Below, in pieces: positions 1 to 58,150 of a stretch of DNA of 64,000 nt. The stretch is from Rhina ancylostomus (taxonomy: Eukaryota), in assembly GCA_030265395.1 (NCBI GenBank), contig JARFYF010000061.1:18754257-18818256 (forward strand), written 5' to 3'. A program made the translations under genes and the position numbers. Positions within the stretch are counted from its first letter, which is position 1; each line of letters begins with the position of its first letter. The notes below the pieces were generated by a model. That model was not told the DNA's origin and did no database searches. It saw nothing but the letters and a program-made list of their open reading frames with translations.

Positions 1-890
1 TGCTGCTGACACTTGCATATCTGCACATTGGAGGCCAAGCTCCAAGTTCTTCATCAACTCGTTCAATGAAGGATATGAGAGAATAGGTCTCACATTTTAC
101 ATATGCAAAGCAAAAGTTCTTACAAACATGATCCACTGTACTATACTGCTCTCTGACAATAATGTCCCATGATGACACCCTGAAAAATGAGGACCCTTCC
201 TATTGAGGGCAGACATAGATACTAAAATTCACCATTGCCATCTGTGTATCAGGCTAGCCATTTGAGGAAAGAGACTGTTTGAAGATCAAGACCTCAAACC
301 CAGCACAAAGCTCATAGTCTACCAGGCAGCAGTGATTTCTGATCTCCTGTGTGCTCCTGAGGCTTGCACTGGAGAAATACAACCAACACTTGTCTCCACG
401 GGATCTTCCAAATCCAGTGGTAGGATAAGTAAACCAAAATCAGCATCCTCTCCTCAGTAGTGAGGCTCCAATCACACCCGGTCAGCTCTGATGGCCTTTC
501 ATGTGCCTGAAACAAGATTCCCAAAACTGAAACATTTTGAGTTGTGTCACATCAAGCATTACAGACAGAAAAAAAAATCAAGGATGTCCTCAGAACCTTG
601 ACAATATATACCCTCCCCATTGACTCATGAAAATCCCTAGGTCATGACTGCTCAGAGAGAAAAAGGAGAATTCAGGCTGGCACTGAGAACCTTGAGTCTA
701 TTCATCGGTAGCACACAGAAGCCCAGTGTAAATGGAAGGAGTATACTGGTTCCCAAATAACCCACTCACCTGCCTCATCAGCAGCTACTGCTCTACCTGT
801 GGCAGAGTCTGCAGATTCCATTTTGGCATCATGAGGCTTCTCTGAACCCATAGACCAGGAAGTCATCCTTGATCTAGAGGAAATGCCTCA
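1..890 (+). mobile_element. Degenerate RTE-clade LINE, RT C-terminal half and 3' end (runs off the window start)
   Basis: Frameshifted translation gives AADTCISAH..NSFNEGYERIGLT..KAKVL, LFEDQDLKPSTKLIVYQAAVISDLL, LEKYNQ..IFQIQW and terminal TCGRVCRFHFGI..THR. These match RTE RT motifs (YADD-region, C-terminal CxxC..H). Multiple stops and frameshifts. Confidence 0.85.
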
Positions 891-19483: not shown

Positions 19484-20190
19484 AGAAGAAACACAAGACT
19501 GCAGATGCTGGAATCTAGATGAAAAAACAACAGGATGCTGGAGGAACTCAGCAGACCAGGCAGCATCCATGGAGAAAACAAATGGTCAACTTTTCAGGTT
19601 AGGACCTTTACCTGATAGGAAAAGGTGAAGCCGAATATATAGGGGGAAGAAACAGAGCAGAGATAGGTGGACAAAAGAGGGGAGGCAGGGGAGGCAGGGT
19701 GGGCACAAGGTGGTTATAGGTCGATGCAGGTAAGATATAGTGATAGGCAGATGTGGGGGAAGAGGGGAGAGCAGATCCACCAGGGATGGGTCAAAGGTAA
19801 GGAGGCAGGTGCCCCATAAGGGGAGAGGAAGAGAGAAAAAAAAGTGAGGAGAAAAAAGAGGCTAGGAAAGGGAAGAAAAGAAGAGGCATGGTGGGGTGGG
19901 GGTATTTGGTTCCTCCTCACCTTCCTCCATAACTTTGACCCATTGCTTGGTGGATCTGCTCCTCCTTCCTCCCTATCACTATCTCTTACCTATCACTACC
20001 TTGTCCCCACCCTGCTTCCCCTCTTTTCTCCACCTATCACTGCTTTGTTTTCCCCCTCTATATATTGGGCTTCACCTTTTCCTATCTTCAGTCCTGAAGG
20101 AGGGTCCTGATCCGGAACATTGACCATCTGTTTTTCTCCATGGATGCTGCCTGGCCTGCTGAGTTCCTCCAGCATCCTGTTGTCATTTCA
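19484..20190. mobile_element. Penelope-like non-autonomous element with long inverted arms and a hammerhead-like motif
   Basis: About 19520-19811 is an imperfect reverse complement of about 19918-20190. Flanks tcctcagtctttg (19471-19483) and tcctcaacctttg (20191-20203) match at 11 of 13. Hammerhead-like motif at 20089-20125. Confidence 0.75.
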
Positions 20191-42337: not shown

Positions 42338-42440
42338 TTGTGGCCTATCACTAACATAACCATCAGTCATTTGTGGCCTATCACTAACATAACCATCAGT
42401 CATTTGTGGCCTATCACTAACATAACCATCAGTCATTTGT
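42338..42440. repeat. Perfect 33-bp tandem repeat, 3.1 copies
   Basis: Unit ttgtggcctatcactaacataaccatcagtcat starts at 42338, 42371 and 42404 with no mismatches. Confidence 0.97.
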
Positions 42441-48805: not shown

Positions 48806-48910
48806 AAGCCAGGAAGCAGCCATTCCTTGTACAGCCACTTGAGGTGTATTAAACATTATACATGTTAAAAAACTACAGTACTTAAAACAGTCAAATCAAA
48901 CAATGATAAA

Positions 48911-49101
48911 CACAAGAGATTGCAGATGCTGGAATCTGGAGCATAACTGCTCGGGAACCCAGTGGGTCAGGCAGCATCTATGGAGGCAAAGGAATTGACA
49001 GTCTTAATGCACAGTCTTGACCTGAAACATCGACTACCTCTCTGCCTCCACAGTTGCTGCTTGGGCCACTGAATTCTTCCAGCAGTTTGAGTTTTGTTCC
49101 A
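48911..49101. mobile_element. Short Penelope-like fold-back element with hammerhead-like motif
   Basis: Starts cacaagagattgcagatgctggaatct like the 19484 element; left arm is complementary to 49040-49101; motif agtc-TTAATGC..GAAAC-ATC-gact at 49000-49035. Confidence 0.75.
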
Positions 49102-55750: not shown

Positions 55751-57171
55751 TTTCACTTCAGCTGGAGGAAAGAAATCCATAACAGGAATCCAGAAAGAAT
55801 TTGTTTGGTGACTGTCAAAGGGGAGAGGTATAATTCATTTCAGAAGAACAAGCAAGCAATGGAAGGTGTGAGAAAATTGAAGAGGGTTGAGAAACGGAGG
55901 AAGCAGGAAACCAATTTTACAGATAGCACAAGTTTCATCACAGACACAGCCCCACAGTTAACGAAATGCTGAAGCTTTCTGAAGTACGACAAGAAATGGA
56001 CAAAAGAGCAAGAGAGGCATTAAAGACCAACAGGCTTCTTCCTTTGTTCCAAGTTTTCAAAGGTAAATATACAGAGACTTGCAATCTGCTCCAACCAGCT
56101 TGTATAATAAGGAAATGATGAAAACAGTTTAAACTTCCTCTTGGAGTCCCTGCTATTTGCATGTCAACAGAGGGAATGGTGTCAAGTTTGGGACATTTCT
56201 CCAGCCTTGCTTCCAGCACTTTGATACAGTACCCACAGTAGATGCCCAGGGGCAGTGACAGCAAGAGAAAGCCACTGTTCCGTTTATAGGAAATATTTTA
56301 GTCTGTAGTCATTGTGGCACGTTACAGTTCTTCTCACTCAGAGGAAAGCTTGCCACACACTAACCAATCTAACCACATGGACGGGGAGCCAAAAAGCACC
56401 AGTGAATTAAAAACCAACCCTACCAGTCTTTCATGTACATGATGCAACATAAAGGACAACAACTCAATGTGAAGGGAACAGCAGCCATTTTGTTGCGCTA
56501 GATATCAGAAGATTAGACCTGCAATTCTCACAGCATTACTTCTGTTGTAATAAAATATTTCCTATGCAACAGAAGTCTAAGAAAATAGACATGAAAATGC
56601 AAACCAGATATGCAATAGAACTGCAGATCACCAGGAAGCTGCACTATTACAATATATCCAGTTTGCTTTCCATCCTCTCCAAAGACTATTCAAACCTATG
56701 CATTGGTCTATGCACAACCTCCTTTAAAATATACCTTCCTGTGACCAATTTAGAAGATCTGGAGTGAAATTTCATAAGAAAAGGGGAAATAATAGCCTGC
56801 ATCAACAGTCCAAACAGCAGAACTAACTGAACCAAATTCTGCTACGACTGCGTTTGACCTATGATGTAAGAGGTTCAATGGTGCATACATTTTCATCATC
56901 GATCGGCATGGATCACACTGCGGCCACAGTATATGGAGAAAATATGGCTTCCGCTCCTGCACCTTTGATCCCTGCCAACCCATGGTGCTACATCTATACA
57001 GCACCCTACTCACTTTCATAAATTAACATTAGGTCAATTCTTTCTAAAGTGAGGGATACAAAACTTGGAACAAGATTAGAATTATTTCCTGACTAACACT
57101 TATAAAATAGGCACTGAGGGAAAATTATTGAAGTGAATCAGATAAACAAACTCAAGGGAGAACTAAATTCC

Positions 57172-57308
57172 CAGTCCTGATGCAGGTTTTCAACCTGAAA
57201 CGTCAACAATTCCTTTCACCCTCCACAGATGATGCTCGACCCGCTGAGTTGCACCAACAGATTGTTTGCTGCTCCAGATTCCAGGATCTGCGGTCTCTTG
57301 TGTCCTCG
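57172..57308 (+). mobile_element. 137-bp Penelope-like insertion beginning exactly at a hammerhead-like motif, with 12-bp TSD
   Basis: Flanks gaactaaattcc (57160-57171) and gaattaaattcc (57309-57320). Begins cagtc-CTGATGC-AGGTT-ttc-AACCT-GAAAC-GTC. 3' end is the reverse complement of the starts of the 19484 and 48911 elements. Confidence 0.8.
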
Positions 57309-57879
57309 GAATTAAATTCCTTACTGATGGAAACATAAACAGATGAAAATGCAGGACGAGGGGTAAGAGTGTTTAATGTTATCAGAAGGGAACCAGACTA
57401 CTGGGAACATGGCTATGAGTGCTTAATAAAAAAGAACTTACATTCCTGTATTCCATTCAAAGTATAAACTTAGCATCAAACATGGAAAAGCATCAGCAAT
57501 ATTTACCCATAACTATTCTTAACAAAACCAGTGGAATACGAAGTAACATTGTCAAAAGATCATTGATCCAAAACTTCAATTGTTTCTCACTTCACAGATG
57601 CCATTTGACCTGTTGAGCAATTCCTTATATAATTTTATTTCAGAGTCTGTAGAGTTTTGCCCCTGTGGATTTATTGGAAATAACATGTTGCTCTGTAAAA
57701 GGAAGTTTTGGAATGATTGGCACCTCAACAGCTGTGGCTGTTAGTGGCTACAAGCAGATAGTTCAGGTGAATCATTTCTACTGCAATAACGAAGTTAGTA
57801 AACTTTACACAGGACACAGGGTTAAAGGATCTGAATACTCTCACTACGGACAGAAGCACATGATAAGCTTAAAAAGGAA

Positions 57880-58150
57880 AGTCCCATCTCTCCCTCTCAC
57901 CCGAACATTGTCATACTTCCCCCTCCTGCCACTCCTAAATACCATCTGCTCCTCTCCCTACCCCCAAACACCACCTGCCCTTCTCCCTACCCCACCCCTT
58001 TCCCGAACAACAGATTGTCTCCCCACATCTCCCCAAGCAACATCTGCCCGATACTCCACCCCTCTCTTGAACAATGAATGCCCTCTCCATCCCCCTCCCC
58101 CATCTGCCCATCTCCACACACCACTTTTTCCTCTTACACAAATGAACGTA
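57880..58150. repeat. C-rich low-complexity tract
   Basis: Runs of ccc/cccc with t/a spacers; explains the Pro-rich and Gly-rich spurious ORFs here. Confidence 0.7.

Follow-up and report, generated by a model that had tools for sequence, protein, structure and literature searches.

A decayed terminal repeat from an abundant family of Neptune-type Penelope-like elements, and a family-wide 5' end hotspot at its hammerhead motif

The segment at positions 57172..57308 (plus strand) of the window, that is, of the whole 64,000-nucleotide stretch of DNA analysed here, is a short, decayed solo terminal repeat (pLTR end), together with its tail, from an abundant Neptune-type Penelope-like element (PLE); in itself it is an ordinary copy. 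It belongs to a subfamily designated C9 and is 88% identical to the majority sequence of that subfamily, which was computed in this analysis from the copies. The insertion probably arose by internal priming at the tail by the element's own enzyme, with run-off at a likely capped 5' end of the RNA. The pattern seen across the family bears on the origin of its many short solo and inverted copies, and on the purpose of the hammerhead that they carry.

Results

The insertion and its boundaries

The original prediction of a 137-bp insertion bounded by a 12-bp target-site duplication (TSD) with one mismatch was confirmed at 57172-57308. The left duplicate lies at 57160..57171 and the right one, with the mismatch, at 57309..57320 (both plus strand). 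Of the 61,706 window positions compared, 3 have a 12-mer match as good as this one, which amounts to a chance of about 8e-4 over the 16 offsets allowed. A single run of contig sequence spans both insertion junctions and is probably not independent of the assembly; no empty-site joint was seen in this run. Loose contig ends lie at 57174 and 57175. No tandem array was found at the insertion site.

The hammerhead motif in the insertion copy

All elements of a minimal type-I hammerhead with a palindrome replacing stem III, as initially proposed, are present in the 57172-57308 sequence, on the plus strand. The 5' strand of stem I (3 bp in the C9 subfamily) occupies 57174..57176. It is followed by the core from C3 to G8 and by two unpaired bases, the C of position 9 and an A (57177..57184; the CTGATG core is at 57177-57182 and the C at 57183). 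Stem II, in the register of the family (4 bp plus a 4-nt loop), spans 57185..57196 and is mutated here at 57187, 57192 and 57196. The interval 57197..57204 holds GAAA (57197-57200), the ACGT palindrome in place of stem III (57200-57203) and the GTC triplet, with cleavage predicted after 57204 from the geometry described in PMC4209133. The 3' strand of stem I lies at 57205..57207, where CpG decay of the first base, 57205, has disrupted the first pair.

Compared to the family, the first 40 nt of the insertion copy show the change G16T (57187) and changes at the CpG sites 21, 25 and 34 (57192, 57196 and 57205). Three of these substitutions shift stem II to a 5-bp pairing, and stem I has lost the pair that adjoins the cut. 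The 5-bp stem II of the original prediction is thus specific to this copy; the stem of the family has 4 bp closed by a TTCG loop. Likewise, CpG decay accounts for the weakness of stem I at 57205, but not for the two pairs seen in the A9 and U4A subfamilies that C9 itself lacks. With both the family register of stem II and stem I broken, the copy is probably inactive, as had been suspected; judging from its sequence, it is likely dead and unable to cleave. RNA folding returned hammerhead-like stems in the majority sequences and none in the insertion copy, and an Rfam search of the insertion gave no hammerhead at the gathering score or at E values up to 10.

The hammerhead in the family

Exact, intact 31-nt cores were found 43 times in the 2.2-Gb genome and CpG-tolerant cores 2,580 times, against none of either in the reversed control, which argues that the motif is not a product of chance. 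At the level of the family, the core, both stems and the palindrome are all in place and correctly ordered, and G8 is followed by two unpaired bases. The C at position 9 is not decay of the insertion copy but a subfamily trait inherited from the master: among the first 100 of the 2,580 listed cores, counted by eye, 46 have C at this position, 49 have A and 5 another base. In C9 the base after G8 would either replace A9 or may be inserted before it. A third subfamily, U4A (L133, L140, L152, L180, L220 and others; 43 segments), has a full 5-bp stem I. Compensatory stem changes were absent among 406 segments, the one stem change being the loss of the two stem I pairs in a subfamily; neutral copies descending from few masters carry little signal of this kind. 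Divergence is 0.10 in C9, 0.095 in U4A and 0.075 in A9, with no difference between subfamilies (p 0.37). The naturally occurring C9, U4A and A9 cores offer a ready three-way test of whether cleavage matters. In a separate arrangement, the 30-nt hammerhead core by itself is repeated head to tail about four times in the region L032:1496-1630.

The parent element

The 36-nt tail has 1,394 exact matches in the genome. Many copies extend 5' through a pyrimidine-rich stretch into GIY-YIG and reverse transcriptase (RT) sequence, and the repeat lies on the same strand, 1.4-2.3 kb downstream of RT, in 12 of 18 RT-anchored 8-kb loci (hand-picked from 30 RT hits for long homology, hence not a random sample). 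Pfam profiles matched stop-free pieces of real copies, RVT_1 in 2/2 RT fragments and GIY-YIG in 3/4 EN fragments; all of these matches come from decayed copies and fall below the cut-off. In an atlas search, RVT_1 clusters were matched at 0.91-0.94. RT and GIY-YIG occur in one ORF, linked in cis to the terminal repeat, which bears out the Penelope-type origin originally proposed. In copy L156 the tail precedes the ORF and the hammerhead follows it; not counting a foreign insertion of 300 bp, the unit measures about 3.7 kb. The ORF starts about 35 nt past the tail, and a second repeat piece follows in 50 of 67 copies with an ORF start, through partial-tandem junctions that vary from 55 to 361 nt.

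A CX2-5CxxC linker between RT and EN is present in the majority translation, and part of this motif in the real copies L168, L169 and L170. A linker of this form defines Neptune elements in the account of PMC8557442 on which we draw; it is this motif, rather than a tree, that points to the Neptune assignment. The hammerhead family is probably already named in Repbase or Dfam. Literature searches returned no paper on it or on its 5' hotspot (see below); Lunse et al. 2017 may already describe C9 or U4A cores.

Short partial tandems (L133, L234, L252, L253, L254, L278 and L280) carry two hammerheads about 200-350 nt apart, with variable junctions, and could fold as a dimer on one RNA. A search with the GIY-YIG family also recovered other PLEs (L091-L095), which are better preserved, lie on small contigs and show no connection with the hammerhead repeat. 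Their ORFs are open for up to 377 aa, with GIY-YIG above the cut-off; two of them look unlike the host family and might be contamination.

Anatomy of the copies

Anatomy and the hotspot were studied in 100 copies selected by the tail only, 11 of which were dropped as having their 5' end at an N gap. Two copy sets selected on the hammerhead were left out of the hotspot statistics. An inverted piece lies upstream in 51 of the 100 tail-anchored copies. The direct pieces end at positions 133-135 of the element; in the insertion copy the tail, of about 35 bp, corresponds to 57275..57308 (plus strand). Most inverted pieces (38/51) end at positions 92-106, some 35 nt (30-40) short of the direct end, a second, tail-less 3' end equivalent to 57265..57279 (plus strand) in the insertion. 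A tail together with an inverted copy is a pattern described for PLEs (PMC8557442, in the part drawn on here), and the two 3' ends fit the two internal priming sites known in vitro from Poseidon_Ac. TSD scores of at least 9 were obtained in 29/90 copies, as compared to 3/45 shuffled pairings; 23 of the 29 duplications are 10-16 bp long.

A family-wide 5' end hotspot

The original prediction placed the motif at the exact 5' edge of the insertion. This holds, and is a pattern of the whole family. Among direct pieces of the tail-anchored sample that reach position 8, 26/39 stop at positions -1 to 8, whereas the rate downstream of there is 8.3% per 10 nt (p 2e-19); 24/26 inverted pieces stop at the hotspot as well. 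The hotspot, which peaks at positions 2-3, corresponds to 57172..57179 (plus strand) in the insertion copy, where we infer a start at 57173; its commonest end is position 3, not 2. For A9, the canonical subfamily, 52 of 70 copies were usable, the other 18 having their 5' end at an N gap, and 21 of 42 inverted assignments were dropped as N-run artefacts. Aligned to its own reference, this subfamily has 15/30 stops at the hotspot against 5.8% (p 2e-11). Subfamily-specific references were used because four apparent hotspot ends proved to come from a subfamily whose upstream region differs. C9, U4A and A9 all show the hotspot, and each also has extended copies. The hotspot does not reflect failure of the alignment, since the flanks are not pyrimidine-rich (pyrimidine content 0.47 versus 0.9).

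Discussion

Origin of the hotspot

With moderate confidence, we take the hotspot to be the transcription start, and the template to have been uncleaved RNA. The element's enzyme would prime inside this RNA at the tail, and the cDNA would run off the 5' end of the RNA, which is likely capped and coincides with the first bases of the hammerhead. Priming at the cap-proximal site would give products of 100 or 135 nt, such as the insertion copy, while priming at the downstream repeat would give the longer copies. Solo copies, without the upstream TATA-like box and the ORF-start segment, would be dead ends. The sequence TTTATA is found at -31 to -26 from A2, and a start at A2 would match an initiator. 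Against this reading, the TATA-like box is poor in the main subfamily, A9, the modal end is position 3, and the stretch upstream of the hotspot can also be read as a branch point, a pyrimidine tract and a CAG acceptor. Among ORF-start-bearing pieces that reach the motif, 6/8 stop at positions 1-4 (7/8 with L254, read by eye), a proportion not distinguishable from the general 67%; one such piece, L280, extends upstream of the hotspot.

Of 25 junctions at which the base before A2 is not C, 15 have G there (p 0.006 against 1/3); some of these G residues could have been copied from an adjoining inverted or ORF piece (L052, L300). The excess of G resembles the copying of the cap by L1, for which cap-templated G has been described (PMC4038843, seen in part), and favours a capped RNA end at A2. 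A pair of TATA and Inr-like elements is reported for a rotifer pLTR in the consulted portion of PMC3846280. For a Poseidon element, the sections of PMC11167929 used here describe internal priming in vitro at two tail-defining sites, with cleavage dispensable; for an anole element, they describe a requirement in vitro for the ORF-start segment. If the hotspot is a capped start, internal priming of the kind seen in vitro would account for the bulk of the genomic copies, and also for the need of partial tandems to restore the promoter.

A wider generalisation is offered tentatively, its chances of holding being slightly the smaller. In vertebrate Neptune elements, transcription would start at the first base of stem I and the RT would prime internally. 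Most insertions would then be cap-terminated run-offs of 100 or 135 nt, and the copies would map the start and the priming sites in vivo. Since the C9 and U4A subfamilies, with altered cores, have reached very high copy numbers, the motif may be a structure close to the start rather than a cutter.

The same parent could have produced the hotspot in another, unlikely way, if the RT was halted short of the 5' end of the RNA, either where the folded hammerhead begins or at a 3' splice site, in the form of a spliced junction or of a pyrimidine tract and AG bound by protein. A pyrimidine tract and CAG do lie directly before stem I in C9, in A9 and in a third upstream variant, and the spread of ends over positions 1-4 resembles microhomology at exon ends. 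A shared upstream exon was not found among 85 flanks, however; the matches were inverted pieces or ORF-start sequence. Furthermore, the TSD directly adjoins the element in L001, L140 and L220, and nearly so in L003, L006 and L180. The G excess before A2 also stands out against the 29% that we take as the expectation at exon ends (p 0.001), and a stop caused by structure should fall 3' of the stems. In favour of a splice site, and against a start at A2, an intron of D. virilis Penelope ends at this very position, in helix I (PMC4209133, as far as consulted); transcription of that element starts 46 nt before the intron, according to the part of PMC2377424 available to us.

It seems improbable that the short copies are a non-autonomous family of the SINE or retrozyme type that has a master of its own and an internal promoter and is copied in trans. 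Copies of fixed length are very common, short partial tandems with two hammerheads exist, D. virilis Penelope has an internal promoter (PMC2377424, in part), and a derivation of retrozymes from pLTRs has been proposed (bioRxiv 10.64898/2026.07.22.740005, in the portion used). Nevertheless, comparison of 94 short and 86 long C9 segments yielded no diagnostic position after correction (lowest uncorrected p 0.0036, for up to 128 positions); all three subfamilies show the hotspot and have extended copies; and the variable partial-tandem junctions and the lack of an array at the insertion site leave no fixed unit to be copied. The distinct mini-element mobilised in trans that had first been envisaged is not supported by these data: the same 133 bp form the terminal repeat of an element with RT and GIY-YIG in cis, and one sequence is common to the short and the long C9 copies.

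That the 5' end was made by self-cleavage of the hammerhead is scarcely credible: two A9 copies and one copy of the first sample do end exactly at position 34, but ends in the bin around the cut (29-38) equal background (4/55 in the tail-anchored sample and 3/38 in A9), and cleavage would remove the core, which the insertion copy keeps whole upstream of the cut, so that its own sequence refutes this origin. The two A9 ends give a weak hint, noticed post hoc, that part of the template may have been cleaved.

Comparison with known systems

Both the hammerheads in the repeats of PLEs and the abundance of their single copies have been published before. Cervera and de la Pena (2014, PMC4209133, of which part was consulted) described minimal type-I hammerheads in metazoan pLTRs, mostly as single copies ascribed to truncated PLEs. 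The present motif shares with theirs the CUGANG core, the extra base before stem II, a G-C first pair in stem II, the palindromic 15.2-16.2 and a short stem I. It differs in having a stem II of 4 bp, against 7-8 bp in the schistosome families of that work, and in the C directly after G8 in C9 and the U4A change in the sister subfamily, whereas the rows of the supplementary alignment that we could compare all have A9.

The parent resembles the EN+ Neptune elements of Craig et al. (2021, PMC8557442) in its RT followed by a C-terminal GIY-YIG, its Cys-pair linker, its heavy 5' truncation, its partial tandems, the inverted 5' copy and an optional tail of 30-40 bp. A sharp 5' hotspot at the base of stem I is a feature of the present family that was not found described in the parts of that paper drawn on here. 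With Poseidon_Ac of Anolis (Frangieh et al. 2024, PMC11167929, likewise in part), the family appears to have in common two tail-defining priming sites downstream of the hammerhead and uncleaved RNA as the template; no reads end at the cut site in Poseidon_Ac, and copies of the present family show no excess of ends there. Poseidon_Ac belongs to a different clade, however, and its ORF starts within stem II instead of about 35 nt after the tail. Moreover, defined templates were used in vitro in that study, whereas the run-off point proposed here is deduced from copies made in vivo.

Non-LTR retrozymes, in the portions of PMC7229834 and bioRxiv 10.64898/2026.07.22.740005 consulted, are similarly short, non-coding and pLTR-related, with a type-I hammerhead and long TSDs. 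They are, however, made of tandem arrays of a fixed unit and have circular RNAs, while the insertion is a monomer, and the samples contained no repeat of several fixed units for its family. The missing array at the site and the variable junctions of the partial tandems led us to reject membership among the retrozymes.

Other repeats in the window

Two further sites in the window carry related sequence. At 48910-49101, a head-to-head pair of the same family joins positions 36-130 (minus) to positions 1-103 (plus). At 19487-20174, two related pieces lie in opposite orientation (22-132 on the minus strand; -33 to 86 on the plus strand), with shared sequence between the two. The C-rich interval 57900-58150 contains a 29-bp two-copy repeat; at E 1e-3, this interval did not match the majority sequence of the C9 parent. 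Finally, a perfect 33-bp tandem repeat of 3.1 copies occupies 42338-42440.
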